From: Candidatus Babeliales bacterium
Lineage (GTDB): Bacteria; Babelota; Babeliae; Babelales; JANWKD01
Direction of reading: 5' to 3'
Assembly (NCBI GenBank): GCA_963722075.1
Contig: CAVRJM010000004.1
Span: 1 to 19,053, forward strand
Length of the DNA: 19,053 nt
Part shown: positions 1 through 16,876 of the stretch, piece by piece
Numbering within the stretch: the stretch's first letter is position 1
Layout of the letters: each line of letters opens with the position of its first letter
Translations under genes and position numbers: made by a program
Notes under the pieces: generated by a model
Database searches by the model: none
What the model saw: the letters and a program-made list of their open reading frames with translations, nothing else
Told to the model about the DNA's origin: nothing

Positions 1-123
1 GCCACTTATAACTGTGGCCATCGTTGCGATATATAATGAACCCCAGAAACTTGACACGATAAAATTAAAAATGTGTTAGTTTTTAATGAACATGAAAGTG
101 AACATTATTATCGGGGAATTTTT

Positions 124-399
124 ATGGCAAGAAGATATAAAAAACATAGTAGTTCATTCAAAGCAAAAGTAGCTATAGATGCTATTAGAGAACAAAAAAC
201 TTTAAACGAACTAAGTCAGGAACATAGCATTGCTCCTGCACAAATCTCTATCTGGAAAAGACATGCTGAAGAAAATATGAGCAACCTTTTTGAGGGGAAA
301 CAAGAAAAGGACCAACAAGAGGAAATTGATAGGCTTTATCGAGTAATTGGTCAAATAACGGCAGAGCGTGATTTTTTAGAACGCTCGCTCAATCGATAG
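124..399 (+). CDS. IS3 transposase OrfA (HTH)
   Basis: MARRYKKHSSSFKAKVAIDAI...IGQITAERDFL. ATG 124 follows GGGGA and is preferred to the GTG at 73. Confidence 0.9.
   Translation: MARRYKKHSSSFKAKVAIDAIREQKTLNELSQEHSIAPAQISIWKRHAEENMSNLFEGKQEKDQQEEIDRLYRVIGQITAERDFLERSLNR
372..378 (+). promoter_or_regulatory. Putative -1 programmed frameshift site U_UUU_UUA (OrfA to OrfB)
   Basis: OrfA reads GAT TTT TTA. The -1 frame is open from 378 into OrfB at 420. Confidence 0.7.
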
Positions 400-419
400 A
401 TTTAAAGCAGCGTAAGGAA

Positions 420-1301
420 ATGGTTGAGTGTGTAAATGAAGCAATAGACTTTAAAAGAAAATGTGAACTTTTAGATGTATCGAGAGGATCGATGTATTAC
501 AAGCCTAAACCTCAAAAAAATAATGATGCAATTATTATGAATGAGCTACGTGAAATTTATCAAGAAACGCCTTCCTATGGCTATCGGCGCATGACAGTAG
601 CTTTAAGAGAAAATGGTTTTTTGGTTAATCATAAAAAAGTCTTTATGTTGCTTAAGATAGCGGGCATCCAGGCCATTTACCCTCGCAAAAAAACAACCAT
701 ACGAAATCAGGGGCACAAAGTATTTCCTTATTTATTGCGTGGGTTGCTTATTAATCGACCAAATCAGGTTTGGCAAGTAGATATAACCTATATAAAAATA
801 CGGGGTGGTTTTGTATATTTGGTTTGCTTAATTGATGTTTTTAGTCGAAAAATCATGGGATGGAAATTGTCAATTTCTCTTGATACAGCGTTATGCATAG
901 AGGCGTTCAATAGTGCTTTGCAACATGGTATTCCAGAAATTGTTAATAGCGACCAAGGATGTCAATTTACCAGTGCTCTGTGGGTTGAATTAGTGCAACA
1001 ATATGGAATTCAAATAAGTATGGATGGTAAAGGAAGATGGGCAGATAATGTTTATATTGAGAGGCTTTGGCGTACGATAAAATATGAGATGATACATTTG
1101 CATAGCTTTGATACAGTTCAACAGGTAAGAGATGCGCTTGCAAGTTACATTGTTTTTTATAATACACGACGTTATCATTCAAAGCTTAATTATCACGCAC
1201 CAGACGCTATTTTCGCAAAAAAAATTATTCCATCTAAAAAAGAATTATTCGAAAGTTTTATAGCTTCACAAATTTATAAACTTGGAGCCGCTATGATTTA
1301 A
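420..1301 (+). CDS. IS3 transposase OrfB (rve/DDE integrase core)
   Basis: YGYRRM, WQVDITYI, NSDQGCQF and DNVYIERLW motifs. Confidence 0.95.
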   Translation: MVECVNEAIDFKRKCELLDVSRGSMYYKPKPQKNNDAIIMNELREIYQETPSYGYRRMTVALRENGFLVNHKKVFMLLKIAGIQAIYPRKKTTIRNQGHKVFPYLLRGLLINRPNQVWQVDITYIKIRGGFVYLVCLIDVFSRKIMGWKLSISLDTALCIEAFNSALQHGIPEIVNSDQGCQFTSALWVELVQQYGIQISMDGKGRWADNVYIERLWRTIKYEMIHLHSFDTVQQVRDALASYIVFYNTRRYHSKLNYHAPDAIFAKKIIPSKKELFESFIASQIYKLGAAMI

Positions 1302-1858
1302 ATTTTTTTTTAATTTCGTGTCTTGACAAAGGGGTTCACTATAATAGTCAGTTTGATTGGTGTCTAGAGAGATTTTAATATTTGCTTCTTTAATTTTATT
1401 AATGAAATGATAAGGCGTAGAGCCGTCTGTTAGGGGAATATTCTTTGCATAATGAATGCTAGAGAGCGGTGCATTCTCTAGGGATTGCGCTGTTGTCTCG
1501 ATGCCCATTCCATGCAGCACGGCACCTAATTTTTTGATGATGAGAGAAAAATCTTTATAACACAGCTCATCAACATTGTTGCCAAACAAAAGCTTTGGCA
1601 AAGAGAGTTCAATCTTCAACATAAGATCAAACAAGCCTTGTGCATTGATACGATTTTGCAAAGTTAAATGCGGTTTATATTCCCCTTTCAGGAGTTCTTT
1701 CCGTGTTGGGTTCTGCTTTGCTTGGATGGTAGAAGAATGTGGCGATAACAACACGTGTGCTGATGGTTGAAATTTATCAGGTTGAATGATCTGATACATG
1801 TTTTTACTTAAGGTGAAAACTACGGTGTCGATCATGCCCAGCATTCTTTTGATATTAG

Positions 1859-2092
1859 TTAGCATTGGATGTAAACAAGATGATTCAAAGGTAAAGCAAT
1901 CGCTGATAAAATACAAGGGCCGCAATTGCGAGCCCTTATTTGATTACCTTTTGATTTTCGTTTTTTCTTTTCTTTAGGTCTTTTTGCATTTACTCTTTTA
2001 TCAATTGCAATGAGTATTACAAAAAAATCTGTAAGTCGCTTTTTTTCCTCAGAAGATAACATCACATTTATTTTTAAGAGATCTTTCTCCAT
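1859..2092 (-). CDS. Small basic hypothetical protein upstream of the Rep-like gene
   Basis: 77-aa Lys-rich ORF with GGAG upstream, co-oriented with and 23 nt before the Rep-like ATG. Confidence 0.55.
   Translation of the reverse strand: MEKDLLKINVMLSSEEKKRLTDFFVILIAIDKRVNAKRPKEKKKRKSKGNQIRARNCGPCILSAIALPLNHLVYIQC
1915..1937. other. GC-rich near-perfect palindrome/hairpin
   Basis: aagggc cgcaa/ttgcg (a) gccctt: 11-bp arms with one bulged base. Confidence 0.6.
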
Positions 2093-2218
2093 ACAATCTC
2101 CATAAGATACTTTTGAAATATCTTAATTTCTTTCTTAGTTTTTACGGTTATAAAAACCATTATTGAATTAGGAACAAATAAAATTGGAATTAAGCTTAAT
2201 AACAGCTTTTTTGCCCAA

Positions 2219-2311
2219 CTAGCCCGATATATGCATTTCGATTATGCTGATTGATGCAAGCCAATATTGTGAGGTGAGTTGCAGAATCTGAATTCTGTTG
2301 AGCAAGGACAT
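2219..2311 (-). CDS. Putative 30-aa leader/small peptide MSLLNRIQILQLTSQYWLASISIIEMHISG
   Basis: AAAGGA SD before the ATG. The first 18 codons are homologous to the copy starting at 13749 (MSLLNKIQILYQISQNRL). Confidence 0.4.
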   Translation of the reverse strand: MSLLNRIQILQLTSQYWLASISIIEMHISG

Positions 2312-2372
2312 GATCGTTCCTTTGATGAGGAGAGTACTTTGATTACTACAGAGTGGTAGTATATGCGATTTG
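2257..2372 (-). repeat. Conserved leader segment, copy 1 (paralog at 13695-13810)
   Basis: Shared blocks cagaatctgaatt, agcaaggacatgatcgtt, gagagtacttt, gattactaca and agtatatgcgatttg. Confidence 0.9.
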
Positions 2373-2573
2373 GAAGTAAATGTAAGTGTACATTACTCTT
2401 GTTAAAAAATATGGATCATCATTGAAATTAATATTATGAAAGTCAATTATCTAAATTGAAAATATTTCTAATAGAATCATTTATATAAAAAACTTATTAT
2501 AACAATACCACCTTTTGACCTAATTTTCCGCTTAGGATAATCTAATAAGTAATATTAATCATATGGAGGATCT

Positions 2574-3503
2574 ATGCTAATATATCGAACTATTTTTATT
2601 TTTCTTTTCTTTGTTAATGCAGCTTCTTTTACTTGTCATTCAAATCAACAAGATTTATTACAAGAAAAGCTTTACAAGGCCATAATGAATGATTCATCAG
2701 AAGAAATAAAGCTTGTTATTAAATCGGGCGCTAAAGTTGATTTTGTCAAAGACAATAAGTCTCCTTTAATTTTAGCTATTTTACTTAAACGATCTAACTC
2801 TATTGACTGCTTATTAGAATGTGGTGCAAAAGTTAATATACAATTAATTGAATACGCTGTTAAAGCTCGTGATAGTAAAATAGCTGCAATCATAGCAAAC
2901 AAATGTAAAGCTGATCTTAATGCAACTTATGCAGGTTATACTCTTATACAACTTGCAATGGGTTGTTGCGATTACAAAACTGTAATCTGGTTAATTAAGA
3001 ATGGAGCAAATTTTAATGATGAATTTATTTCTCAATCTACTGGAGGATGGGGATACGGTTATCCGCAAGACGGGTCAATTCTTCTTGAATTAATTCAAAC
3101 TTTAATAATTTATGGATATCCTGTAAATAATCTATGGAATGAACCGATTTGGGGAAACTTTTGGCTTTCTTTTAATGATCAAATTATTAGTGAGGCAATA
3201 GTCCAGCTATTGATTAAAAATGGTGCCAATCCTAATTATATTTTCTATTTAGATCGTGATAAAAAAATATTTTCTACACCATTAATGAAAGCTATTACAT
3301 ATAGTAATCTAGGTGCAGTTAAAGTCTTATTAAATTCAAATGTTAACGTTAATCAACAAGCATGTGATTATAATTATATTAGATCTTTTAATTTATATAC
3401 TCCTCTTTCATATGCAATAGAAAAACGAAGTGTAATTGGTGATCGTAATTGCGTGTTTGATACTATTATAAAACTATTGCTAGAACATAAAGCAGGTTTG
3501 TAA
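2574..3503 (+). CDS. Ankyrin-repeat protein with N-terminal signal peptide
   Basis: SPLILAI...LLECGAKVN, TPLMKAI...LLNSNVNVN and TPLSYAI...LLLEHKA; hydrophobic N-terminus; GGAGG RBS. Confidence 0.9.
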   Translation: MLIYRTIFIFLFFVNAASFTCHSNQQDLLQEKLYKAIMNDSSEEIKLVIKSGAKVDFVKDNKSPLILAILLKRSNSIDCLLECGAKVNIQLIEYAVKARDSKIAAIIANKCKADLNATYAGYTLIQLAMGCCDYKTVIWLIKNGANFNDEFISQSTGGWGYGYPQDGSILLELIQTLIIYGYPVNNLWNEPIWGNFWLSFNDQIISEAIVQLLIKNGANPNYIFYLDRDKKIFSTPLMKAITYSNLGAVKVLLNSNVNVNQQACDYNYIRSFNLYTPLSYAIEKRSVIGDRNCVFDTIIKLLLEHKAGL

Positions 3504-3547
3504 GCAAGTAACTGCTTACGTTATAATTCAATCTTCATAGGGGTGTT

Positions 3548-4648
3548 ATGGGACTCAATAGATGTTTATACTATTTGACAATTTTTGTAATAAATTTCTC
3601 AAATATTTCAAAAGGTTCAAGTGATCGGCTAATGGCAATAGTTATTACAATGCTTAGCATACTCATAATCGAATTAGCATTATTTATAGGCAGCATTATT
3701 TTTCGTTTAAGATTTAATACTCTAATCAAAACTATCTTAATAACAGGATTAATCATTTCATTAGGAAGTTGTTTTTTCGCTTCAATATATTATTTATCAA
3801 ATTATCGTTTTAAAAAACAAACTATGAATTTAATACCTGAAGAACAATTAATAAGTCTTAAAGCAGCCTATCAAGCACATAAACAAATGGATTTTGACAA
3901 ATTAGCCTTAGATTCAGCAGATAGAATAAAACATATTTGTAGCAAGGATCAGGTTGAAATATCTTGTTTGATTAAAGAAGTATCAAGGATTAATGAAATT
4001 CTAGATAATATATTCATAACTTCCAGTGAAGGCGAAAAGCTTAATGAATTACGGACAATAATAGTCAATATAGTGAGAGCTGGTTGCGAAGAATACCCTG
4101 ATACTTTAACACTTTTTAATCACGCTGAGCGATTAAACGATTTGTATAGAAAAGTTTATTTCAACCCACTAATAGTCGAGTTTAGTAAGATATTGGTCGA
4201 AGAAGGACCCATTGGCTATGTTAAATACATAACAAAATTATGTAAGACAGAAGATGGTAGAGAAGAGTTAGAACAAATACTGTCTTTGCCCTATGTAGAA
4301 ATTTTGGAAGATTATTTGCATGATGTTGAAAAATTTAAACTTTTTGCCATTGAATTACTATCAGATATCCCATCCAAAATCCAAGAGAAAATATCCAATC
4401 ATGATATTCAACAATTCATAAAAAATGAACTACCTGAGCTTATAAAAACTTTTGATGGACGCAGAAAAGTAATTATGCATCTAATACACCTCTACAAAAT
4501 ACCAATGGTTCCTTTGAGCGTTATATTAGATATCTTTAAAGAAAATAATGGCATTGATATCAATAAAATCACAAACGAACAAATAGAGAAACGCATCAAC
4601 ATCAAAATTGATAGCATTATTCTGGGGTTTACAAAAAGAGCTAATTAA
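3548..4648 (+). CDS. Hypothetical membrane-anchored protein
   Basis: 366-aa ORF with two clear N-terminal hydrophobic helices; the start may be the ATG at 3632. Confidence 0.75.
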   Translation: MGLNRCLYYLTIFVINFSNISKGSSDRLMAIVITMLSILIIELALFIGSIIFRLRFNTLIKTILITGLIISLGSCFFASIYYLSNYRFKKQTMNLIPEEQLISLKAAYQAHKQMDFDKLALDSADRIKHICSKDQVEISCLIKEVSRINEILDNIFITSSEGEKLNELRTIIVNIVRAGCEEYPDTLTLFNHAERLNDLYRKVYFNPLIVEFSKILVEEGPIGYVKYITKLCKTEDGREELEQILSLPYVEILEDYLHDVEKFKLFAIELLSDIPSKIQEKISNHDIQQFIKNELPELIKTFDGRRKVIMHLIHLYKIPMVPLSVILDIFKENNGIDINKITNEQIEKRINIKIDSIILGFTKRAN

Positions 4649-4737
4649 AAGATTAACTGGAAAATATAAATAATGGCAGAATTAATTTGAATAATTGGCC
4701 TGAAAATAAATGCTTTATATAATAGGAATTAACAATA

Positions 4738-5340
4738 ATGACTTTTTTTGAATTCGTAAGCACATGGTTGTTGGGAATATTAACCTTCTCTTTAACTAAT
4801 GATAATACTGCAATAGCGCAATGTAGAGAGGATTTGATTGAGCTTGAAAAAGAGTTGGAAAGTTTAAGAGATGATTCTACTCGCATACAAAATACACATT
4901 TTAAGAAAATTATAAATATTAAACAAATATTAAAAAAGTTAAATATACATTATGCTGGCCTATTCATTAGGCACTATGGATTACAAACACTTATTGAAAA
5001 AAGTTTTGAAGATATTTACAGGATGGAAAGTAATCCTTATGAACCTCAGAATAAAAGTAATATTGTTAGTATTGAGCTTACTGACCTTTGGGGTTCAATT
5101 CCTAATGGTAAATACCAAGCTACAAAAATAAAAGAATTACAAAAATCATTTTTCTGTAAAGGCTTTTTAGGTAGAACTTTATACTTTATTGAAAATAATC
5201 CATTTATAAATTTTATCAAAAATAATCCCATTAAAATAATCAGCTTGGTTATAATATTGATATTAATCGGTTTATATAAACTATATATCAATGTAATTGA
5301 ATATTCCCCTTTAAATTTAATAATCAATCTCAATTTTTAA
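4738..5340 (+). CDS. Hypothetical protein with N- and C-terminal hydrophobic segments
   Basis: 200-aa ORF with AGGA RBS, a short coiled coil and a C-terminal TM-like segment. Confidence 0.65.
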   Translation: MTFFEFVSTWLLGILTFSLTNDNTAIAQCREDLIELEKELESLRDDSTRIQNTHFKKIINIKQILKKLNIHYAGLFIRHYGLQTLIEKSFEDIYRMESNPYEPQNKSNIVSIELTDLWGSIPNGKYQATKIKELQKSFFCKGFLGRTLYFIENNPFINFIKNNPIKIISLVIILILIGLYKLYINVIEYSPLNLIINLNF

Positions 5341-5397
5341 GCTAGAACACACAGTTTTTATGATTTATACGCCCATAGTAAATTCGATGTCGTGGTT
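5329..5397 (-). repeat. Diverged 69-bp coding-tail repeat A (paralog at 16808-16876)
   Basis: 53/69 identical to repeat B, ungapped. Minus strand reads NHDIEFTMGV*IIKTVCSSLKIE. Confidence 0.8.
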
Positions 5398-5419
5398 TAA
5401 GTTGCCTCCACTAGGTAAC

Positions 5420-5448
5420 GCTCGTCATTTTTGAAAAAAATGACGAGC
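5420..5448. other. Perfect 13-bp hairpin upstream of the GIY-YIG pseudogene
   Basis: gctcgtcattttt-gaa-aaaaatgacgagc. Confidence 0.8.
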
Positions 5449-5470
5449 AGGCCAACAATTAGATAAAAAT

Positions 5471-5747
5471 ATGTTTTACATTTATTATCTTAAATCCCAA
5501 GCTTTTCCCGATAAAACCTACATAGGCTTTACTTCTAATTTATAACAAAGATTCTTAGCTCATAACGCAGGAAAATCAATATACATTAAAGATTTTTAAA
5601 CCATGGGATCTGGTAGGTTTTCTGGGATTTGATCAAGAAGCAAAAGCTTTAAAGTTTGAGCGATATTTAAAATCAAATGCCGGCAGAATATTCTTGCGCC
5701 GATATTTTTATCTCTTGATAATAATGTATAGTATTTCTTTGATTTAA
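5471..5747 (+). pseudogene. Small GIY-YIG nuclease pseudogene
   Basis: MFYIYYLKS..PDKTYIGFTSNL*QRFLAHNAGKS.. then a frameshift at ~5597, then KPWDLV..ALKFERYLKSNAGRIFLRRYF. In-frame TAA at 5543-5545. Confidence 0.85.
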
Positions 5748-5748
5748 C

Positions 5749-5770
5749 ACACCATAAGGTGTAGTTTTTC
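5749..5770 (+). terminator. Possible intrinsic terminator
   Basis: acacc-ataa-ggtgt followed by agtttttc, just after the GIY-YIG pseudogene. Confidence 0.35.
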
Positions 5771-5782
5771 TTTGAAAAATTG

Positions 5783-5822
5783 GGTAAAATGCCTATATTG
5801 GCTATGTGAGTTCGAGTCTCTC
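5783..5822 (+). pseudogene. Possible degenerate 3'-half tRNA remnant (long variable arm, Tyr/Leu-like)
   Basis: gcc-tatatt-ggc stem followed by a T-arm-like gtgag-TTCGAGT-ctctc (4/5 pairs). No 5' half or acceptor stem. Confidence 0.3.
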
Positions 5823-5854
5823 AAGAAATACTAATTCAAATTCAATCAGCACAA

Positions 5855-5899
5855 TATTTATATATATTAAAAGCATTTGCTAAAAAACGATTTTGGTAA
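5855..5899 (+). pseudogene. Miniature, internally deleted GIY-YIG remnant
   Basis: One frame reads YLYILK|AFAKKRFW*. 5876-5900 is 23/25 identical to 11804-11828. Confidence 0.5.
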
Positions 5900-5902
5900 T
5901 TT

Positions 5903-6412: not shown

Positions 6413-6441
6413 CTATAAAAGAGAGCAGTATCAACAAATTC

Positions 6442-7104
6442 TTAATCAGTAATTATAACTAATTGACTCTCTATAGCTTTAATTTTTTTATCAGCATTTT
6501 TTTCTGCTTCACTTTGTTGTAACATAGCTGGCAAGGGCTTAACTCCCGGAGCATTATTATATTCTTTAATAAAACTTGCAATTGTTGCTAAAAAAGTTTC
6601 TGCAAGATTATCATACGATGACCCAACGCCAATAATTTCTGCTGAAACATCGTATTTTTTAACTATATCATATGACTCAATAAGTTTTTTATATACATTT
6701 TTCGTAGCATTAAAAATTTCTTTTAATGTAGTTATTGTATTATGAGAAAGATTAGTTGCAATCGGATTATACGTACTCTTTAAATTTTTGATCGTTGTTA
6801 TTAGATGAATAATTTCTGTTGATGGAATTGCATGGGTATTTTTTTCTAATATATCTTCAACTGCTTCAATGCTCTTATTTATACTATGTGCAATTATCTT
6901 GTTGTTAATATCATCAATAGTAGAACCCTGCGCATTCCATGTTCTTTTTATTAATTCGAAAGCTTTTTGGCCTTGAATGAAAGCTTTATGTGCTTTACTG
7001 GTTATTAACATTGTTTCAAGCTTTTTTTCCTCTAGTGCTTTAATCCCTTGTGTAAAGAAAATTATAATTGCAACCATCGTAAATAATTGTAATTGTTTTT
7101 TCAT
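6442..7104 (-). CDS. Hypothetical secreted helical protein
   Basis: 220 aa; MKK start, hydrophobic core and IKA cleavage site; AGGA RBS. Confidence 0.8.
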   Translation of the reverse strand: MKKQLQLFTMVAIIIFFTQGIKALEEKKLETMLITSKAHKAFIQGQKAFELIKRTWNAQGSTIDDINNKIIAHSINKSIEAVEDILEKNTHAIPSTEIIHLITTIKNLKSTYNPIATNLSHNTITTLKEIFNATKNVYKKLIESYDIVKKYDVSAEIIGVGSSYDNLAETFLATIASFIKEYNNAPGVKPLPAMLQQSEAEKNADKKIKAIESQLVIITD

Positions 7105-7374
7105 AATTTTTTCCTAGTTCAACCTTCTTGTACTCTATATTTTTTATTACAATAGCACATTTAGTTTTCTGGTTGCAATAATTCAATAGTAATAATTATT
7201 GCCACTTTGAAAATAATAATAGTATAATAAAGACAGAGTGATAATTATGTTTTCTGTTTAAAAAGGACTTAGCATATGAAAAAGATTTTATTAGGCATAA
7301 TCATAATAGGTTGGGCGCTGGGGGTTAAAGCTTATAGTGAACCCCTTTGTCAAGACACGAAATTAAAAAAAAAT

Positions 7375-8256
7375 TTAAATCATAGCGGCTCCAAGTTTAT
7401 AAATTTGTGAAGCTATAAAACTTTCGAATAATTCTTTTTTAGATGGAATAATTTTTTTTGCGAAAATAGCGTCTGGTGCGTGATAATTAAGCTTTGAATG
7501 ATAACGTCGTGTATTATAAAAAACAATGTAACTTGCAAGCGCATCTCTTACCTGTTGAACTGTATCAAAGCTATGCAAATGTATCATCTCATATTTTATC
7601 GTACGCCAAAGCCTCTCAATATAAACATTATCTGCCCATCTTCCTTTACCATCCATACTTATTTGAATTCCATATTGTTGCACTAATTCAACCCACAGAG
7701 CACTGGTAAATTGACATCCTTGGTCGCTATTAACAATTTCTGGAATACCATGTTGCAAAGCACTATTGAACGCCTCTATGCATAACGCTGTATCAAGAGA
7801 AATTGACAATTTCCATCCCATGATTTTTCGACTAAAAACATCAATTAAGCAAACCAAATATACAAAACCACCCCGTATTTTTATATAGGTTATATCTACT
7901 TGCCAAACCTGATTTGGTCGATTAATAAGCAACCCACGCAATAAATAAGGAAATACTTTGTGCCCCTGATTTCGTATGGTTGTTTTTTTGCGAGGGTAAA
8001 TGGCCTGGATGCCCGCTATCTTAAGCAACATAAAAACTTTTTTATGATTAACCAAAAAACCATTTTCTCTTAAAGCTACTGTCATGCGCCGATAGCCATA
8101 GGAAGGCGTTTCTTGATAAATTTCACGTAGCTCATTCATAATAATTGCATCATTATTTTTTTGAGGTTTAGGCTTGTAATACATCGATCCTCTCGATACA
8201 TCTAAAAGTTCACATTTTCTTTTAAAGTCTATTGCTTCATTTACACACTCAACCAT
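7375..8256 (-). CDS. IS3 transposase OrfB
   Basis: Protein identical to 420..1301. Confidence 0.95.
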   Translation of the reverse strand: MVECVNEAIDFKRKCELLDVSRGSMYYKPKPQKNNDAIIMNELREIYQETPSYGYRRMTVALRENGFLVNHKKVFMLLKIAGIQAIYPRKKTTIRNQGHKVFPYLLRGLLINRPNQVWQVDITYIKIRGGFVYLVCLIDVFSRKIMGWKLSISLDTALCIEAFNSALQHGIPEIVNSDQGCQFTSALWVELVQQYGIQISMDGKGRWADNVYIERLWRTIKYEMIHLHSFDTVQQVRDALASYIVFYNTRRYHSKLNYHAPDAIFAKKIIPSKKELFESFIASQIYKLGAAMI

Positions 8257-8276
8257 TTCCTTACGCTGCTTTAAAT

Positions 8277-8552
8277 CTATCGATTGAGCGAGCGTTCTAA
8301 AAAATCACGCTCTGCCGTTATTTGACCAATTACTCGATAAAGCCTATCAATTTCCTCTTGTTGGTCCTTTTCTTGTTTCCCCTCAAAAAGGTTGCTCATA
8401 TTTTCTTCAGCATGTCTTTTCCAGATAGAGATTTGTGCAGGAGCAATGCTATGTTCCTGACTTAGTTCGTTTAAAGTTTTTTGTTCTCTAATAGCATCTA
8501 TAGCTACTTTTGCTTTGAATGAACTACTATGTTTTTTATATCTTCTTGCCAT
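8277..8552 (-). CDS. IS3 transposase OrfA
   Basis: Protein identical to 124..399. Confidence 0.9.
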   Translation of the reverse strand: MARRYKKHSSSFKAKVAIDAIREQKTLNELSQEHSIAPAQISIWKRHAEENMSNLFEGKQEKDQQEEIDRLYRVIGQITAERDFLERSLNR

Positions 8553-9151
8553 AAAAATTCCCCGATAATAATGTTCACTTTCATGTTCATTAAAAACTAA
8601 CACATTTTTAATTTTATCGTGTCAAGTTTCTGGGGTTCATTATAGCTAATGCTGATGAAGATAATTTGCGCAATGGGCTTCCTGATTTTTCAAATGCTAT
8701 CATAAATATTCATAAAATGATAAAAATAATAAAAAAAATGCAAGATATTAATATGGATTATAAAAATATATCTGATAATGTCACTTTGCTAGGAAATTAT
8801 ATAAATAGAGCAATAAATCAAGGTTCTGATTTGCTTTCATTGATAGATAATCTTGATAAATTAAATAAGCCTGAAAGCTTGCGCTGGTCAAAATCAGAGC
8901 AAAACGCTATTGAGAGAACATTCACTTATTTTTCTAATACTTTGCATGGTAGGGGAATTGATTCGGAAACTTATACTAATTTAAAACAAAAAATGGATAG
9001 GCTTAAAACAATATATCAATCAATACTTAATAAATTAAAATCTAAATTTCATATCTCTTTGTAAGCGATAAAGGCTTAAAAGCAATAAGTTGCTCACGAA
9101 TAACTTCTAAAGGGCGTTGTACATTAGGCAACCAAACCTTATTTACAGGAA

Positions 9152-10189
9152 TTACGCATAAACACTAGCATTGTTTTGATCTAGAGCCGTAATGCATCGA
9201 TTTAAAAAAGCAGGATTTTTTTTCTTAAGAGCTCTGATAGCGGTTTCTGCGTTTTTATAACCATTTTTTTTCATTTCCAATTGAACGAGAGAATATGCTA
9301 AAAGCACGGCACAAATATGGTCATATTGTGTAACTATTTTTCGAGAAAAACATTCCTGTAAACCTAAACTTTGCTTAGTAGTTCTATTTAATTTCTCTAT
9401 GCCCCATCGCTTTTTATAATTCATAGCATGTTGTTTTGGAGTAGCTTTATAGGTTGCTGCTTGGTAAACAATTGTTTCATTGCCATGCTTATCAATGCGC
9501 CTTACAGCGGTAATATATAAAGAAAGGCCGCGCCAAATAACTTGTACAGTTCGAGCCATTTGGCGGCCTTTTGGACGTATTTCTTTAATTTCACGCAGCT
9601 TTTTCTTTTTTCCTTTGTACTCAACAACACGATTACTATGCATGCGCACTTCAGTTTCAATGTTATTTTCAATAGCCCATTGTAGATACTTTACAGTAGC
9701 ATATGCACCATCTAAAACAGCAATAATTCGTGTATTAGGGAAAAGTTTTTGAGCGGTATTAATGAAATGTTGTACAGTAATTCTTAAAGCTTCGCTTGGA
9801 TTTGTATAAAATTCCTTACCAAAAGTAAAAGCAGCATTTATAGGCACAACAAACTTACGATCAGAAATAGCACCAATAATCAATTTGTATGCATTAATCG
9901 ACCTGCCTATCTTAGTATCAAAAAGCCATCCCGTACCTTCCATCATTTGAGAATGAATTTTTTTGATAGCCGTTTCATCTATAACTGCTAATAATTCTTT
10001 TTTATCAGCGAAAATTTGTTGTGCAATTTTTTTTGATTGTTCAAGGCTTTCATGACCTGGCCGTAACATTCGGCTAATGGTATCTCCGCTTTTTTTGATT
10101 ACCCTACCCATATTCTCAAAACTTCGTTTGCCAATATTTGTAAGAATTGTAAGAAATGGATAAGTTGCTATAGTATTAACGATGATCAT
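9152..10189 (-). CDS. DDE transposase, IS701/IS4-like
   Basis: VIDETAIKK, VLDGAYA and the Y-x2-R-x3-E-x6-K motif YKKRWGIEKLNRTTK; the stop codon lies inside the IR. Confidence 0.92.
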   Translation of the reverse strand: MIIVNTIATYPFLTILTNIGKRSFENMGRVIKKSGDTISRMLRPGHESLEQSKKIAQQIFADKKELLAVIDETAIKKIHSQMMEGTGWLFDTKIGRSINAYKLIIGAISDRKFVVPINAAFTFGKEFYTNPSEALRITVQHFINTAQKLFPNTRIIAVLDGAYATVKYLQWAIENNIETEVRMHSNRVVEYKGKKKKLREIKEIRPKGRQMARTVQVIWRGLSLYITAVRRIDKHGNETIVYQAATYKATPKQHAMNYKKRWGIEKLNRTTKQSLGLQECFSRKIVTQYDHICAVLLAYSLVQLEMKKNGYKNAETAIRALKKKNPAFLNRCITALDQNNASVYA

Positions 10190-10191
10190 TT

Positions 10192-10229
10192 TAGGCTCTC
10201 CCTTGAATTAGGCTTTTTGGGAGAGTCTA
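10192..10229 (-). promoter_or_regulatory. Hairpin sequestering the transposase ribosome-binding site
   Basis: Minus strand UAGACUCUCCC-N16-GGGAGAGCCUA-AA-AUG, 10/11 paired. Confidence 0.6.
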
Positions 10230-10514
10230 TTATTTTTTAAAAATACGTCTAGATCAAATCTTTAAATACTCTGCGGAAGTCCTGTATTTACATCATCCAT
10301 TAATCTATACCAAGCTCTTTGATTATACTTTGCAAACAGCATTCTTAACTCTCTGGAGCTCATAACATTCAGTGCTTGATTCAAGCCAAAGAGCTGCAAA
10401 ATCTTTGTTGGACTTAATTCAGGGTTATTGAAAATTAAATCAGCAAGATTTTTCATTAGCTAGTTTATAATCAAGCAAGGGAGGCCTTTTTGATTCAATC
10501 TCATCTAGATAATG

Positions 10515-10567
10515 CACTATTATTGAGTAGAGATGTTTTTAATCACACTCTTTACTCAATAATAGTG
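10515..10567. repeat. Long inverted repeat (15-bp perfect arms, extendable inward)
   Basis: cactattattgagta ... tactcaataatagtg, directly after the stop of 10569..11102. Confidence 0.85.
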
Positions 10568-10568
10568 T

Positions 10569-11102: not shown

Positions 11103-11320
11103 AATACATATCCTTTTTTTATTTTAAAATAATTGAATATTAGTACGGTTACTCCTATATTTAATTATAAATTAAAACTATTCAAATAGTCAATAACTGA
11201 TTAAGCTTATTTTCAAAGAACATTAATACAATCCAAATAAAGTGACTTTTATTTTTTCATCGGCAAGTCTGGTGCTCCTACATCAGAAATCTTTCTACCA
11301 AGAATTATAAAAAATAAAGA

Positions 11321-11764: not shown

Positions 11765-11766
11765 TT

Positions 11767-11827
11767 ATGTATTGTGTATATAAAAGTAATATCTGGCCAT
11801 GTCTTTGCTGAAAAACGATTTTGGTGA
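11767..11827 (+). pseudogene. Miniature, internally deleted GIY-YIG remnant
   Basis: MYCVYKSN, then with a 1-nt shift SGHVFAEKRFW*. Confidence 0.5.
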
Positions 11828-11832
11828 TCACA

Positions 11833-12003
11833 AAAAGCTTCTCGTTGGTTTTTATAACCACTTTCATCAAAGCTAAAACTTTTAATAATGCCAAAATCTC
11901 TGACTTGGCAATATTTCTCTAGGCGAGCTACTTGCGCTGGCAGTGAATTGCCCGCTTCTTTTTGTTCTTCCATACTTACACAGGTGATTAAAATTGCTTT
12001 CAT
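11833..12003 (-). pseudogene. N-terminal fragment (~57 aa) of a serine recombinase, probably large-type, with a degenerate catalytic motif
   Basis: MKAILITCVSMEEQKEAGNSLPAQVARLEKYC...FDESG aligns with the resolvase motif RVST.EQ...SL.AQ, with R>C and T>M; truncated. Confidence 0.75.
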
Positions 12004-12156
12004 GATTGCTCTAATAATTATGGGTTAATCTTTTTAATGTTCTAGAGCTTATCACGAAGGGTGAAGAAGCGGTAGATAGTTGTAGCAAATAACTTGATGT
12101 GATAAAATTATTAACCAGTTATGTCGGTATAAAAACCATAAAAGAAAGTAACCCCC

Positions 12157-12687
12157 ATGAAATTGATAAATTATATACCAAGCTATATGGCAGCCATTAT
12201 ACTTCTATGTAACATACCCAATATACATAGCATGGATGATTCACTACTAGGCAAAAAACTTTGTAAGGCTTCAAAAAAAAATGATATTAAAAAAGTCAAA
12301 GAATTATTAAGCCAAGGTGCAAATCCTAATTATCTTCAAAGTACTTTAACCGATACACCACTTCTTTCTGCTGCATCTAGGGGCAATGTAGAAATAGTCA
12401 AAGTCCTAATTGATGCGGGTGCGAATGTTAATAAAGAACAACCTTCATTTGGCCATACTCCTTTACATTTTGCTGTTATTAGTCAACATTTACCTGTTGT
12501 GCTAGCGTTAATAGAAGCAGGCGCTAAAGTAAATACTGAAACTAAAATGGGGACTACCCCAATGGGAAACGCAGCTTATCATGATAACGTAGCTATCGGA
12601 AAAGAATTACTTAAACACGGCGCTTCTTTAACAGGAACTAGCGAGGAATGGAAGAAAAAATTGGCTGATAGTTTAATAAAAGAATAA
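12157..12687 (+). CDS. Ankyrin-repeat protein (about 4 repeats) with signal peptide
   Basis: TPLLSAASRGNVEIVKVLIDAGANVN and GHTPLHFAV...LIEAGAKVN. Confidence 0.95.
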   Translation: MKLINYIPSYMAAIILLCNIPNIHSMDDSLLGKKLCKASKKNDIKKVKELLSQGANPNYLQSTLTDTPLLSAASRGNVEIVKVLIDAGANVNKEQPSFGHTPLHFAVISQHLPVVLALIEAGAKVNTETKMGTTPMGNAAYHDNVAIGKELLKHGASLTGTSEEWKKKLADSLIKE

Positions 12688-12750
12688 CAAAAGCACATTT
12701 CCATCTTCAAATTTGAAAAAATATTCATAAAATTCTCAAAAGGGAAGATC

Positions 12751-13479
12751 CTACTTTTGTTTCTTATTTGTTTTTTTCACTATAGTACGATTCAAATATT
12801 TAAATAATGAAGTCATAGTTCTTTTTTTTGTAATTGTATGAACATGCCAACTCAAAAGGATTAACTTACAAACCAACCCTTCATTTAAGCGAACCAATGG
12901 ATGGGGATCATCTGAGCTACTATTATGTTTGAGTTTTATTTTAAAAGTAAGTCGTCTAAATTCTTTTGATTTTTCAAAATAAATGTAATCGTTCAAAGGT
13001 GTTTTTTGAATAGGTATTTTAATTATTAAACCTTTTGTTTGTAACTGTTGAAGTATAGCTAAGTTTTTAGTCTGTTCAGTAGAATCATTTTGTTTTTTCC
13101 CTCGTGACATCCACAATCTTGATTCCCACCTTGCTTGAAGCTCTCCTTCAGCATGTAAAAGCGCACATCTCAAAAGATAGAAATATTGTTGTAGCATGCA
13201 TAGTTCATTGTTATCAGTCAATTTAAAATATTTCATGTATTCCAGCAAAGCTTGGCTTATGATTTCTGCATGATAACCACAAACAGCAATAAGAATAGAC
13301 TCAATGAATTTTGCGTAATCATTTTTTGTTTTTCCTGTTGGAATTCTATTTGCAGCTATTATTTTTTTACTTAGTTCTTCCCAGTCCATTATATCATTCA
13401 AAAGGAGAAGCTCAGTATTTGCAAATAACAACATCCCTATAGAAGATTTAATTTTTTCTGCGGGTGATTTTAAAGCCAT
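12751..13479 (-). CDS. Hypothetical protein
   Basis: 242-aa ORF with no recognised motif; its start overlaps the end of the 13470-13691 remnant. Confidence 0.65.
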   Translation of the reverse strand: MALKSPAEKIKSSIGMLLFANTELLLLNDIMDWEELSKKIIAANRIPTGKTKNDYAKFIESILIAVCGYHAEIISQALLEYMKYFKLTDNNELCMLQQYFYLLRCALLHAEGELQARWESRLWMSRGKKQNDSTEQTKNLAILQQLQTKGLIIKIPIQKTPLNDYIYFEKSKEFRRLTFKIKLKHNSSSDDPHPLVRLNEGLVCKLILLSWHVHTITKKRTMTSLFKYLNRTIVKKTNKKQK

Positions 13480-13691
13480 GTGTTACACCTTAATGGTTTA
13501 TAATTGATTAAATGTTGTCGTACCTCACTGAAAGACCTACGCGCAATCTGCAAATTCACTTTATTTGCATCATTCATAAGCCTATACCAAGCCTTTTGAT
13601 TATATTTTGTAAACATCATTCTTAACTTTCCAGGGTTCATACTATTGAGTGCTTGCTTCAAGCCAAAGAGCTGCAAAATCTTTGTTGGACT
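13470..13691 (-). pseudogene. Second C-terminal fragment of the probable Rep-like gene
   Basis: SPTKILQLFGLKQALNSMNPGKLRMMFTKYNQKAWYRLMNDANKVNL...RQHLINYKPL. 13657-13691 is an exact 35-nt match to 10380-10414. Confidence 0.75.
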
Positions 13692-13694
13692 CAA

Positions 13695-13810
13695 CAAGCC
13701 GATTTTGTGAGATTTGATACAGAATCTGAATTTTGTTAAGCAAGGACATGATCGTTTCTTGATGAAGAGAGTACTTTTGATTACTACAAAGGGAGAGTAT
13801 ATGCGATTTG
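13695..13810 (-). repeat. Conserved leader segment, copy 2
   Basis: Homologous to 2257-2372 and fused directly to the C-terminal fragment. Confidence 0.9.
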
Positions 13811-13847
13811 CCATTAATTACTAGAAGTAAATCTATAAAAAGACGAG

Positions 13848-14636
13848 CTACTTGAGACAATCATATAAATATCCTCTCCACTCTTTTTCAACTTCATGAT
13901 CTGGTAGGCGTTTCATAAGCTCTAAACATTCTTTTTGAAAATCAATATCAGGAGAATGCTGCACTATAAGCCATGCATTCTGACAAGATTCTTTTCCAAA
14001 TTTCGACAACGTAGGCCAACCATGCAACGCAACAATCTCCTTAAGCTTTTCTGTATTATCATTATCAAGCTCAGAAAGTCCATCACCAAGCAACCACCAA
14101 GAGCTATTTGTTTCATGGATACCATCGAATATTCTTTTGCGAAGGTCTTGGCCCGCTTCAGCCATTTGCTTAAGCATCATTTTCACTTCATCTTGCGCAA
14201 ATGGTTCATTGCTATGACTTCGTATACGATCGTGTAAATACATAATCAATCTTTTTTCAACCTCATGATCTGGCAGACGTTTCATGAGTTCTAAACATTC
14301 TTTTTGAAAATCAAGATCAAGAGAATGCTGCACTAAAAGCCATGCATTTTGACAAGCTGCTTGTCCAAATTTTGACAATGTAGGCCAACCATGCAATGCA
14401 ACTATTTCCTTAAGTTTGCTTGTATTATCATTATCAAGCTTAGGCAGACCATACTCATGCAGAACATCATGAAGAGAACGTTTGGTTTCGTGGACTTTAT
14501 CTAATATTCTTTTGCGAAGATTTTGGTCTTCTTCAGCCATTTGTTTAAGCATTATTTTCACTGCATCATCAGCAGATAATTCTTTGCTATGAAGTACTAG
14601 AAAAAAAGTAATCAATATTAAAAAAAATTTTTTCAT
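13848..14636 (-). CDS. Secreted protein with two tandem DUF6624-like domains
   Basis: Signal peptide; duplicated D..NT.KLKEIVALHGWPTLSKFG..CQNAWL.VQHS.D.DFQKECLELMK; DNA repeat offset 369-375 nt. Confidence 0.8.
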   Translation of the reverse strand: MKKFFLILITFFLVLHSKELSADDAVKIMLKQMAEEDQNLRKRILDKVHETKRSLHDVLHEYGLPKLDNDNTSKLKEIVALHGWPTLSKFGQAACQNAWLLVQHSLDLDFQKECLELMKRLPDHEVEKRLIMYLHDRIRSHSNEPFAQDEVKMMLKQMAEAGQDLRKRIFDGIHETNSSWWLLGDGLSELDNDNTEKLKEIVALHGWPTLSKFGKESCQNAWLIVQHSPDIDFQKECLELMKRLPDHEVEKEWRGYLYDCLK

Positions 14637-14658
14637 ACATTTTCCTTAACTATTAAAT

Positions 14659-14823
14659 TTATTTTTTATTTTTAAAAACATCTTGTGGTTCTTTTCCAAA
14701 CTCTGATTGATCTTGCATAGATCGAAGAATTTTAATTTCTAACAAAGCTTGTTCTTCAATTTAAGCAATTTCATCTTTATCTAGGCGCTTTTCAAGATAT
14801 TTTTTAAAGCTTTTTGTTTTCAT
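14659..14823 (-). pseudogene. Degraded small gene, probably an internally deleted XRE-type regulator/antitoxin
   Basis: MKTKSFKKYLEKRLDKDEIA*IEEQALLEIKILRSMQDQSEFGKEPQDVFKNKK*. In-frame TAA at 14761-14763; starts 10 nt after the upstream HTH gene. Confidence 0.5.
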
Positions 14824-14833
14824 CTTTAGGCTT

Positions 14834-15250
14834 TTATTTACTCTTTTTCTTTGCATGCAAAGCTCGAGCACTTGAAGAATCAACATGCGGTTGCTTTATC
14901 ATTACAGGCTTTTTCAACCTTGGAAGATTTACTTTCACTTCAGCTTTTTGTTTTGTTTTTGTTTTAGGGGTAACCTTAATAGTAATATCTTGGCCCAAGA
15001 TATTTAAAAAACGAAAAAGTCTTTCAAGAGAAAAACCAGCTAATCTTCCTGTACTTAAAGCAGATATCTTTGGCTGATCTATTTCTAGAAGCTCTGCTGC
15101 TGCAACTTGTGTAAGGCCTTTTTGCTCAATTATTATGTTAATTTGATATGCAAGTTCTGCTTTAGCAAGTCTTTCTTCTAGATTTGAAAGGTCAAGATCT
15201 GCAAATACATTGCGTAAACCTCTAGGTTTTAAGTCGGTTATTTTGTGCAT
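14834..15250 (-). CDS. XRE/HTH_37 transcriptional regulator (HigA-like antitoxin), orphan
   Basis: NVFADL...LAKAELA...GLTQVAAAELLEIDQPKISAL..GRLAGFSLERLFRFL; the N-terminus may be substituted. Confidence 0.85.
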   Translation of the reverse strand: MHKITDLKPRGLRNVFADLDLSNLEERLAKAELAYQINIIIEQKGLTQVAAAELLEIDQPKISALSTGRLAGFSLERLFRFLNILGQDITIKVTPKTKTKQKAEVKVNLPRLKKPVMIKQPHVDSSSARALHAKKKSK

Positions 15251-15298
15251 TGGGTCTATTTATTTGTAAAAAGACTTTAAAATCACATAACATAATTT

Positions 15299-15535
15299 TT
15301 ACCACAATACACAAAAATCACATGGACATACTGATTGTTCTTCTTGTAATTTTTTAAGTCTATTATTTATCTTTAGTAATCGATGTTTCCTTTTTCGTTC
15401 TTTTGTAATCAAATCATCGAGCACATCAATTGCCGCCGTTTCCTGCGCTTCGGTTTTAGGCTCTAATTGTTGCATAGCATTAATTGATATTGTAAATAAT
15501 ATAGAAATAAAACAAATTGTTAAAAATTTTTTCAT
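15299..15535 (-). CDS. Small secreted hypothetical protein with C-terminal CPCDFC
   Basis: 78 aa; MKK start, hydrophobic core and INA/MQ cleavage site. Confidence 0.7.
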   Translation of the reverse strand: MKKFLTICFISILFTISINAMQQLEPKTEAQETAAIDVLDDLITKERKRKHRLLKINNRLKKLQEEQSVCPCDFCVLW

Positions 15536-15851
15536 AGTTATTAATTTTTTTCAATTAATTAAGGCAGAAAATTACTTAATAACTTCTCCTCTAGATCATA
15601 TAATAAAGATTATATTCAAAATATAATAAAAAAAATTGCGAAACAAATTTATTCAAAAGATTTAGTTCTTTTTATGTATTTTAATGCAATTTTTATACAA
15701 CACTAATTAACATAGCATTTTTCACCTGAGATGATAAGAACTTATAATTTTGCTATAACAAATTAAAATTGATAAAATCTGTAAACTCCTTAGAATTAAC
15801 GGAGTTTGGCCCTTTAGATGAATATTTTCTAATCAAATACTTTAAGAGATA

Positions 15852-16073
15852 TTACCACTTTCTATTCAATAAAAGACTTTCTCGGCTAAGATTTGTCTTT
15901 CTAGCAAGCTCAGTCATTTCTCGACCTTGTGCTTCATAAACATTTTTTAATGCAAGTAAAAAAACATTTGGATCTTCATCGGTAATTGCTACATTAAGAT
16001 AAGCTGATGCAAGTTCGGGATCTTGTAAATCTTGAATGAGTTTTTCTTGATAATCTCTAAATCTTCTTTTCAT
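15852..16073 (-). pseudogene. Truncated addiction-module antidote (HI1420-like)
   Basis: DPELASAYLN..DEDPNVFLLALKNV.EA...LSRESL, then lacks the YRMLS..GNP half present in the neighbouring paralog. Confidence 0.75.
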
Positions 16074-16105
16074 GATTCATTTAGATTTAAGTTATGCAAA
16101 AATAG

Positions 16106-16405
16106 TTATTTTTTTGGTGAGATATTAATTTGTAAATCCATTGCATCTACAATAGCAGTAATATTGTCCCATCGTGGATTGCCTGTCTTAGAAAGCATAC
16201 GATAGACTGTAGACCTGCTCATACTATTTTCTTTTGCTAGAGAGCTTTTATTTTCTTCATAGGCTTCTATAACATTTTTAAGTGCTACTAAAAAAACTCG
16301 TTTATCCTCATCTGCTAACGCTTCATTAAGATATGCAATCGCATATTCAGGATCTCTGAGTTTTTCTGCAAAATAATGTTTAAATTCTTTTAATTTTTTA
16401 GTCAT
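16106..16405 (-). CDS. Addiction-module antidote protein (HI1420-like HTH antitoxin)
   Basis: AIAYLNEAL.DED..VFLVALKNV...SRSTVYRMLSKTGNP. ATG 16405 lies 1 nt after the toxin stop, with an AAGGGG SD. Confidence 0.9.
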   Translation of the reverse strand: MTKKLKEFKHYFAEKLRDPEYAIAYLNEALADEDKRVFLVALKNVIEAYEENKSSLAKENSMSRSTVYRMLSKTGNPRWDNITAIVDAMDLQINISPKK

Positions 16406-16406
16406 A

Positions 16407-16724
16407 TTACCCCTTATATTGTTTCCAATACTCAATAGCTTTTTCTAGATCCCTATTTTGACTCTTTTTAAGACCGCCGGTAAGTATAATGACAATGGTC
16501 TTACCCTTTTTCCCAAAATAAATTCTATACCCTGGACCAACGTGAATTTTAAGTTCCGAAACACCGTCTCTTAATGGTTCACAATCACCAAAGTTGCCTA
16601 CACTCAACCTATCCAACCTCGTTGCTATAATTCGCTGAATATTTGCATCAAGATCATCAAACCATTTAGTAAATGGGCAAGTACCGTTTTTTGTCTCGTA
16701 AAGGATTATTTTGATAGCTTCCAT
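16407..16724 (-). CDS. Addiction-module killer protein (HI1419-like, RelE/HigB fold toxin)
   Basis: PFTKWFDDL...RL..GNFGD.EPLRDGVSELKIHVGPGYRIYFG...LTGG.KKSQNRD. Start reassigned to ATG 16724. Confidence 0.92.
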   Translation of the reverse strand: MEAIKIILYETKNGTCPFTKWFDDLDANIQRIIATRLDRLSVGNFGDCEPLRDGVSELKIHVGPGYRIYFGKKGKTIVIILTGGLKKSQNRDLEKAIEYWKQYKG

Positions 16725-16731
16725 ACCAATA

Positions 16732-16760
16732 AGTGTAGCATATATGGCACACATTATCAA
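16732..16760 (-). promoter_or_regulatory. Sigma70 promoter with overlapping palindromic operator for the TA operon
   Basis: TTGATA-N17-TACACT-N7-ATG. Imperfect palindrome gtgtagcatatatggcacac (16/20) at 16733-16752. Confidence 0.7.
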
Positions 16761-16807
16761 TAGTTTTAGATAATAAAGATGCACATTGTTTCTAGTATTT
16801 GTTAGAC

Positions 16808-16876
16808 CTCAATATTTAAGCTAGAACAAACGGTTTTTATGACTTGCACACCAGAGGAAAACTCAATTTCATGGTT
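16808..16876 (-). repeat. Diverged 69-bp coding-tail repeat B
   Basis: Minus strand reads NHEIEFSSGVQVIKTVCSSLNIE(V*); paralog of 5329-5397. Confidence 0.8.

Follow-up and report, generated by a model that had tools for sequence, protein, structure and literature searches.

Probable stack of decayed integrative elements with a Rep_trans-fold initiator and a self-split serine recombinase gene in Candidatus Babeliales

The DNA analysed here, hereafter the window, makes up the entire contig C4 (19,053 bp) of a Candidatus Babeliales assembly (1.47 Mb in four contigs, C1 being a near-complete chromosome). With a probability of about 0.8, it holds the decayed remains of three related integrative elements (A, B and C) whose successive insertions likely took place at the 3' end of a tRNA-Glu gene and that would have encoded a circle-copying replication protein (Rep) and a large serine recombinase (LSR) whose gene would be split by its own integration. 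A preliminary description had noticed seven pieces in addition to a gene starting with MIDT, and all of them do lie on the minus strand where it had placed them. Comparison of the window with itself by BLAST pairs the leaders (2257-2372 and 13695-13810; 85% identity, E 1e-28), the C-terminal gene fragments (10282-10417 and 13559-13694; 85%, E 1e-35) and the tails (5329-5397 and 16808-16876; 77%, E 2e-6). The recombinase N-terminus (11833-12003) has a weak match to Pfam Resolvase and aligns with residues 1-61 of an intact LSR of 488 aa at 87% identity. Since the pieces share 77-85% identity with each other and 72-85% with their copies in an intact element, L067, they are best read as separate insertions, in agreement with the earlier view of diverged paralogs that do not derive from one recent duplication. 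This earlier reading is borne out on the initiator and the integrase, but it had overlooked the tRNA target, the location of the attachment (att) site within the LSR gene and the part likely played by a small open reading frame (ORF).

Intact elements, their tRNA target and the split recombinase gene

Relatives were analysed in 77 loci (from the best 80 of 165 matches, some of them redundant or overlapping), which comprise Dependentiae and Patescibacteria records. Intact elements show the order att/tail, cargo, promoter and leader, small ORF, Rep, cargo, LSR and tRNA 3' end, the whole being head-on against the tRNA gene. A co-oriented LSR gene lies downstream of Rep in 62 of the 77 loci (56/63 where at least 5 kb were available) and a co-oriented tail upstream of it in 55 (46/55 with at least 5 kb), the tail being on the opposite strand in 5 and downstream in 1. 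The fragments of the window co-occur in intact loci elsewhere, in the same order and on the same strand, and similar stacks are found at the tRNA-Glu genes of relatives; both results agree with the proposal that related small elements inserted repeatedly and later lost their cores. Of 57 LSR gene ends, 43 lie at most 12 nt from the 3' end of a tRNA (Asp 12, Asn 10, Glu 9, Arg 9, Gln 3). The elements bounded on both sides, 29 in number, measure 4.6-14.4 kb (median 8.3). A Rep-less derivative was also seen in genome G003 (L147:12437-16854): it is 4.3 kb long and carries a tail, toxin-antitoxin (TA) cargo and an intact LSR at tRNA-Glu, with no match to Rep or to the small ORF.

All 120 listed homologues of the LSR carry PF00239 and PF07508, most also carry PF13408, and fold matches agree with this assignment; the stub left in the window corresponds to codons 1-57 of such an LSR of ~485 aa. 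When the element is integrated, the LSR frame ends in the antisense of the tRNA (by eye, in most of the 120 homologues). The tails start at a core that is the antisense of the last bases of the tRNA, the same bases where the integrated LSR frames end. Of the 29 bounded elements, 16 have a clear start codon-like TGG at each end; the core that their two ends share measures 6 nt in 12 and 7-10 nt in 4. The tRNA-Glu site of C1 reads flank-core-tRNA-Glu and the window reads the same flank-core-tail (core 5423-5418), the alignment breaking exactly after the core. C1 is, on this comparison, the empty tRNA-Glu site and the window the filled one, and the nuclease module, which at the empty site adjoins the 3' end of tRNA-Glu, appears in the window as a flank displaced by element A.

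As read from these junctions, the crossover (6-bp core) is situated within the LSR gene and the tail is its detached last ~33 codons. The tails had been described as coding; they are coding indeed, though they do not come from Rep, and neither the Rep end nor the integrated-LSR end was matched by tblastn, so that both assignments were rejected. A matrix based solely on att-arm DNA located 49 tail sites; codons 11-30 are open in 46 of them, versus 5 and 1 in the other frames. The ratio of nonsynonymous to synonymous polymorphism (pN/pS) is 0.33 in frame versus 1.03 and 1.78 in the other frames, for 40 profile-selected tails compared in non-independent pairs. Natural fusions of LSR and tail exist in P0213 (one of the 120 homologues) and at 7 tandem junctions. 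Solved LSRs align up to residues ~469-478; because they align only to about residue 470-478, the tail is considered an added extension. A scan for average symmetry of attP gave 0.39 at the centre versus 0.38 and 0.35 for shifted centres, only single positions being symmetric. A second type of tail was also seen after the same LSR end (L095, L104, L109, L121; P0158, P0172, P0177, P0186), which suggests a sister family whose LSRs are likewise split, with tails swapped at tandem junctions.

Each part of the element has a precedent; the combination was not found in the literature searched. Mx8 IntP and the SSV1-type integrases have their attP inside the integrase gene and integration alters the protein; these are tyrosine recombinases, unlike the present LSR. 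Among serine integrases, DsiB of the Dehalococcoides ssrA islands has a gene whose 3' end overlaps attP/attL, on islands that occur in tandem as here, and McMurdie et al. suggested that it might reach full function only in the circular form (PMC3146451; for this and the other sources cited, comparisons refer to the part of the text that was available). The DsiB islands differ by their tmRNA target, a 20-bp repeat, a module of six genes that includes a second recombinase, and the lack of Rep; furthermore, the available part of that source shows neither a conserved tail nor a recombination directionality factor (RDF), both of which are proposed for the present elements. With SPbeta SprA/SprB, A118/LI, Bxb1 and phiC31, the present LSR shares the Pfam Resolvase, Recombinase and Zn ribbon domains and a short core (PMC12286644, 10.1101/2025.01.03.631226). 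Unlike the LSRs of these phages, it has an extra C-terminal tail of ~33 aa that is present or absent according to the integration state.

The Rep protein, the small ORF and the leader

Comparison with full-length homologues indicates that the MIDT gene and both C-terminal fragments belong to one protein family of ~372 aa, all three copies in the window being broken. The preliminary description had planned to rebuild the MIDT protein from the left-adjacent DNA. The window starts at the contig end and the assembly has no left flank; the gene is identified from its homologues. They number 478 for a fragment query and 1,290 protein clusters (50% identity) with a profile, and the family occurs in 61 of 230 genomes of the phylum and also in Patescibacteria. 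The phrog_702 family ("replication protein") is matched by 27 of 106 members and TIGR01629 by 1 of 106. Phage_CRI (PF05144) is matched by 1 of these 106 close members; among 118 distant members, 10 are above the curated cut-off and 13 at E<=0.01. A sequence search of the PDB with Rep gave no match. The structural model (predicted local distance difference test, pLDDT, 89.5) has RepDE and RepSTK1 as top PDB matches (4cwc and 4cij: Z 9.6, root-mean-square deviation 4.3, 221 residues aligned; Z 8.2, 4.4, 203; next match 5.8), with a Foldseek E of 2e-3, and the inovirus protein G2P is a match among viral models (BFVD). The MIDT protein is thus predicted to fold like Rep_trans initiators, which sustains the earlier idea of a gene II/X-like initiator; that idea depended on a similarity to replication initiators, and matches to the Rep_trans fold and to G2P were obtained.

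Tyr183, Lys185 and Glu226 are found in 135 of 135 members, Arg224 in 134, D188 in 127 and D3 in 121. Another candidate nucleophile, Tyr171, was ruled out, being conserved in only 16/135. The spacing of Tyr183-x-Lys185 and of Arg224/Glu226 resembles that of Y191/K193/E196 and R212/E214 in RepD, whose catalytic pattern consists of Y191, K193, E196, R212 and E214, with D46, D142 and E214 as metal ligands (PMC4797284). The R-x-D-x-A-x-D motif of Rep_trans is not kept in the family, its first Asp being a His and its Arg not conserved. From the model and these residues, we infer that Rep acts as a rolling-circle nicking initiator, though outside the full Rep_trans motif. It resembles RepD and RepSTK1 of the pT181 family, as well as gpII/G2P of filamentous phages, by a TATA-box-binding-protein-like fold, Tyr-x-Lys, Arg-x-Glu and an N-terminal Asp; it differs from them by a His in place of D142, the absence of R140 and R189, an identity of ~10% and its location on a chromosomal integrative element (PMC4797284). 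A gene of ~98 aa was seen directly before Rep in Patescibacteria-type elements (L088, L094, L099, L102, L118, L124, L128, L141) and in L135. It belongs to SpoVG, by Pfam in L135 and by similarity elsewhere, and does not occur in the element type of the window.

Of 75 loci, 61 have a member of the small ORF family in the 3 kb that precede Rep and 46 have one in the nearest 600 nt; in 3 loci it is fused to Rep. None of 47 members belongs to a Pfam family. Co-folding of the small ORF product with the DNA-binding half of the LSR from the intact element L067 gave a score of 0.77, whereas the best of 3 controls scored 0.00. Among solved pairs, 116 of 157 attain the mark used; among mismatched pairs, 2 of 215 do. 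The runs agree in at least 74% of contacts, with a partner pLDDT of at least 64. In the predicted interface, helix 18-31 of the small ORF lies on LSR residues 333-347 and 418-473, where the coiled coil (helices 335-382 and 388-415) has its base, and the small ORF of the window has nearly the same helix as its L067 homologue. Known or predicted RDFs, including those of SPbeta, A118, Bxb1 and phiC31, are small partners that bind the coiled-coil junction, as predicted here, and C-terminal extensions were speculated to block this junction (PMC12286644, 10.1101/2025.01.03.631226). Because of this predicted binding at the coiled-coil base, the small ORF likely encodes the excision factor (RDF), which would bind the LSR at the junction of the coiled coil and the zinc domain.

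The leader is confined to the closest family, and the ATG and first ~10 codons of its ORF are kept in 9 of 9 copies. A sigma70-like promoter match lies at the 5' edge of the conserved block, such matches being at chance level in the region. A structured leader RNA was set aside as weak, with a consensus of only -2.2 kcal/mol and one of six inputs misplaced. Hairpins with variable loops occur ~50-85 nt 5' of Rep in many Dependentiae loci (by eye); that of the window (1905..1945) is not called by a strict terminator scan. Because the loops are not conserved, the nick site was rejected and the pre-Rep hairpin is likely an attenuator or terminator. No shared origin motif came out of k-mer counts and no oriT was identified.

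Remnants, cargo and origin of the window

The features of the window are collected in Table 1. Their arrangement suggests that, from the distal to the tRNA-proximal side, it would contain element C, element B, the nuclease module and element A, which runs off the contig towards the tRNA. The remnant of element C spans from its tail at 16876 to the LSR stub at 11833, and element B consists of a Rep end and two cargo genes syntenic with the same-genus genome G001, where the DNA 3' of the Rep gene plus one intervening ORF is 88% identical to 6444-7312. The cargo of element A is placed as in intact elements, with the leader on one side and att/tail on the other, and TA genes resembling those of element C come after the tail in G001, G003 and G004. 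The tRNA-Arg of C1 is the site of a similar decayed stack, with two tails and a Rep remnant. No tRNA and no Rfam match was found within the window.

Table 1. Features of the window (positions on the forward strand of contig C4; IS, insertion sequence)
Feature	Position	Strand	Evidence and remarks
Element A Rep, codons 164-173	2..31	-	10/10 residues identical to full-length P0001/P0002; truncated by contig end
IS3-family IS within Rep	32..1343	+	3-bp target duplication; Pfam HTH_Tnp_1 + rve; second copy 99.9%
Element A Rep (MIDT...), codons 1-164	1344..1835	-	Broken before the putative catalytic Tyr; 82-86% to ~372-aa homologues; fold, motifs
Small ORF, 77 aa, intact	1859..2092	-	Amphipathic helix + basic tail; predicted RDF
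GC-rich hairpin + T-rich stretch	1905..1945	-	~77 nt 5' of Rep start, inside small ORF; -17.1 kcal/mol
Leader A	2219..2386	-	Sigma70-like promoter 2386-2358, Shine-Dalgarno-like site, 30-codon leader ORF 2311-2219
Element A upstream cargo	2574..5340	+	Ankyrin protein with signal-like N-terminus 2574-3503 (Pfam); orphans 3548-4648, 4738-5340
Element A far-end att + detached LSR tail	5317..5423	-	Degenerate core 5423-5418; tail has frameshift + stop; matched by tail profile
Decayed GIY-YIG-type nuclease module	5448..5868	+	86% to C1:1112956-1112529 beside tRNA-Glu
Element B downstream cargo	6442..9064		Secreted-type orphan 6442-7104 (-); signal-peptide gene 7276-9064 (+) split by IS3 7333-8644
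Element B Rep, codons ~262-370	9057..10523	-	tblastn; frameshifted, split by IS4-superfamily element
IS4-superfamily element	9146-10284		6-bp target duplication; Pfam DDE_Tnp_1/DDE_5
Element C LSR, codons 1-57 only	11833..12003	-	Catalytic-motif Arg replaced; 61 residues 87% identical to intact LSR
Element C cargo, Rep-LSR interval	12157..13479		Ankyrin protein 12157-12687 (+, Pfam); orphan 12751-13479 (-)
Element C Rep, codons 299-368	13485..13694	-	Fused to leader C by ~1.3-kb deletion (small ORF + most of Rep gone)
Leader C	13695..13810	-	85% to leader A
Element C upstream cargo	13848..16784	-	DUF6624 repeat protein, HTH_37 antitoxin-like gene, Gp49/RelE-like toxin + HI1420-type antitoxin, antitoxin fragment (Pfam)
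Element C LSR tail, codons ~10-33	16802..16876	-	att core lost; tail profile E 1e-10 in whole genome
DJ-1/PfpI gene	18109..18834	-	Marks tRNA-distal part of tRNA-Glu island

Some further observations concern these remnants. An IS4-like element 80% identical to that of the window lies in C1 (G000:C1 873506-874644), the two being independent insertions in two different Rep remnants, and an imperfect palindrome of 53 bp (10515-10567) is found exactly where the homology of element B to Rep stops. The secreted-type protein at 13848-14636, made of two tandem DUF6624 units, has a paralogue with 81% identity in C1 (578,170-578,957), ~8 kb from a tRNA-Val/Asn/Asp cluster. The GIY-YIG label of the nuclease module is a reading of its translation, with no library match. 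Several genomes have genes of this type (~80 aa), flanked by palindromic repeats and located right at a tRNA 3' end or at a displaced att core (L021:7396-7635; L026:11929-12183; L030 beside tRNA-Glu; L035-L037, L046; 5448-5868 in the window), as if they were a second mobile module using the same sites.

Homologues come from records named Candidatus Babeliales or Dependentiae. The nuclease module and the DJ-1 gene are 86% and 84% identical to their counterparts in C1 (1,104,800-1,113,000), with the same orientation towards the tRNA, and the tRNA-Glu island of G004 is likewise bounded distally by DJ-1 (the C4 gene being 84-86% identical to those of C1 and G004, in the same orientation). On this basis, C4 looks like a further allele of the chromosomal tRNA-Glu island. 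It probably comes from a co-binned relative rather than from the genome of C1, since its IS3 is not found in C1 and has a 99.9% identical copy in G001 (G001:C1, L146:16868-18179), since the genes shared with C1 are only 84-86% identical, and since contig C3 largely duplicates another region of C1 at 88-96% identity; C3, too, looks like DNA of such a relative. The DJ-1/PfpI gene has a G+C content of ~50% versus 32% for the contig, which suggests a foreign origin.

The cargo was scanned in 21 Dependentiae elements, without the longest one (114 of the 143 ORFs of at least 80 aa). TA-like genes (RelE/Gp49-like, Fic or HEPN) were found in 11 of the 21 elements, and restriction-modification systems in 2, together with 4 ankyrins and several resistance-like and hydrolase genes; 45 of the 114 ORFs have no family. 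No conjugation or transfer, capsid, morphogenesis (pI/Zot) or coat family was found among these 114 ORFs of at least 80 aa (Pfam, E<=1e-5). Signal-peptide-like ORFs, called by a crude heuristic, number 37/143 inside the elements versus 451/1211 in C1, and ankyrins 4/114 versus 23/1211 in the chromosome, counted by different methods. An enrichment of effectors is not supported by these counts. The proposal that the elements carry ankyrin, secreted and TA genes is thus confirmed for the frequent TA genes, whereas ankyrin and secreted genes are not enriched over the genome: the elements seem to shuffle secreted genes typical of the lineage.

Proposed life cycle, rival explanations and meaning

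In the excised circle, the LSR gene would regain its tail. The integration crossover would then occur just inside the acceptor stem, the element supplying the last bases of the tRNA, so that the tRNA would remain complete and the tail be left behind at the far end. The excised circle would be copied by the predicted Rep_trans-fold initiator, and the product of the small ORF would bind the LSR and act as excision factor, while the tail would probably bias the circle-borne LSR towards integration. Each newcomer would displace older elements from the tRNA, and ISs and deletions would destroy the cores while the cargo remains. Spread from cell to cell, the weakest step, would most likely occur by uptake of excised circles by the host; this passage through competence is proposed since no conjugation or capsid family was found among the 114 cargo ORFs. 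ComEC is encoded by 223 of the 230 genomes of the phylum.

Several observations weigh against this reading. The excised circle, nicking, replication and recombination are predictions from sequence and models, and both the tRNA and the LSR of element A lie beyond the contig end. Among the LSR ends, 14 of 57 have no tRNA called by ARAGORN (several of them run, by eye, into tRNA-like antisense or another tail), and 13 of the 29 bounded elements have no far-end TGG and do not enter the core count. Tandem junctions can yield fusions of LSR and tail without any circle, and the model of the tail, two helices, has a middling pLDDT (51-74). With respect to Rep, no match to Pfam Rep_trans (PF02486) was found among the 106 and 118 proteins and Phage_CRI is matched by only 13 of the 118 distant members. 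The position of RepD D142 is occupied by His128 (His in 129/135 members), and R140, R189 and the T-x-Y-x-G strand of RepD have no counterparts, all this in a residue mapping based on motif spacing and secondary structure rather than on superposed coordinates. Finally, the complex of LSR and small ORF is a prediction on an intact relative, L067, and may echo solved LSR-RDF complexes.

The elements could also be integrative mobilizable elements (IMEs) whose Rep_trans-fold protein mainly serves as a relaxase and that are moved by a co-resident conjugative system, which is judged unlikely. Streptococcal IMEs have Rep_trans proteins with a proven relaxase function (PMC7563843), IMEs typically accrete in tandem (PMC5704250) and the present elements carry TA systems with no transfer genes among the 114 cargo ORFs. 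The likeness extends to small size, the presence of an integrase with a Rep_trans-type protein, variable cargo and tandem decayed stacks, as in IMEs and the accretion of cis-mobilizable elements, CIMEs (PMC5704250, PMC7563843). However, a search for VirD4-type coupling proteins, which did not extend to TcpA and other coupling classes, gave one weak match in 230 genomes versus 61 genomes with the Rep family; no helper conjugation system was found. Rep is moreover G2P-like and not PF02486, and serine-recombinase IMEs disrupt sites internal to genes (PMC5704250), whereas the present LSR targets tRNA 3' ends and leaves them whole. It is slightly less probable that they are satellites of inovirus-like filamentous phages, in which a G2P-like Rep would make single-stranded DNA circles packaged by a helper. 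Inovirus G2P is indeed the closest match in sequence (phrog_702) and among viral structures, and the size of 4.6-14 kb would suit such satellites, but no relative of Rep was found in IMG/VR (17 pattern hits, 0 confirmed), INPHARED phages or PLSDB plasmids, and Zot-like proteins give only weak matches in 20/230 genomes, none of them in the family of the window.

Other doubts bear on the tail and on the window itself. It is improbable, to about the same degree as for phage satellites, that the tail is an attP arm followed by neutral read-through to which the LSR is indifferent, and that the small ORF regulates Rep instead of acting in excision. The first ~8 codons of the tail do overlap the att arm with its symmetric positions, and the tail-less LSR is already domain-complete when compared with the solved ones; the small ORF belongs to the Rep operon, overlaps the hairpin and is sometimes fused to Rep. 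However, the codons past the att arm are open and conserved at the protein level, and the small ORF is predicted at the RDF site of the LSR with controls at 0.00. As for unrelated debris or an assembly chimera, suggested by the separation of C4 from the chromosome, by its IS3 and by the 84-86% identity of the genes shared with C1, it is very improbable: order and strand of the pieces are those of intact elements, and the same stacks, including DJ-1 at the distal side, recur in relatives.

The accretion and decay proposed for the window resemble those of IMEs and CIMEs (PMC5704250) and of tycheposons (10.1101/2020.12.28.424599). The tycheposons of Prochlorococcus carry cargo and build tRNA islands by serial insertion and decay, as here; they differ by their tyrosine integrases (910/937), primase/helicase modules and att repeats of ~40 bp (10.1101/2020.12.28.424599), where the present elements have an LSR and a Rep_trans-fold gene. 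No description of the present family was found in a literature search, although supplements of LSR catalogues may list members.

A wider and more tentative proposal, rather doubtful as a whole, is that these elements form a large undescribed family, self-replicating and directed at tRNAs, of Dependentiae and Patescibacteria endowed with a genetic switch of direction. The tailed enzyme of the circle would only integrate, its tail shielding the RDF site; integration would amputate the tail, and an RDF of 50-100 aa co-transcribed with Rep would couple excision to replication. The circles would spread by competence and be among the main builders of islands in these intracellular bacteria. The system is suited to asking whether a C-terminal extension that depends on integration sets the direction of a recombinase, a question open in recent papers on LSR structure, and hundreds of natural sets of LSR, att and candidate RDF with defined sites are on offer. 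The window itself is a dead stack, a record of accretion and decay, and the elements would provide a concrete route for the gain and loss of genes in the tRNA islands of small-genome protist parasites and ultra-small bacteria.

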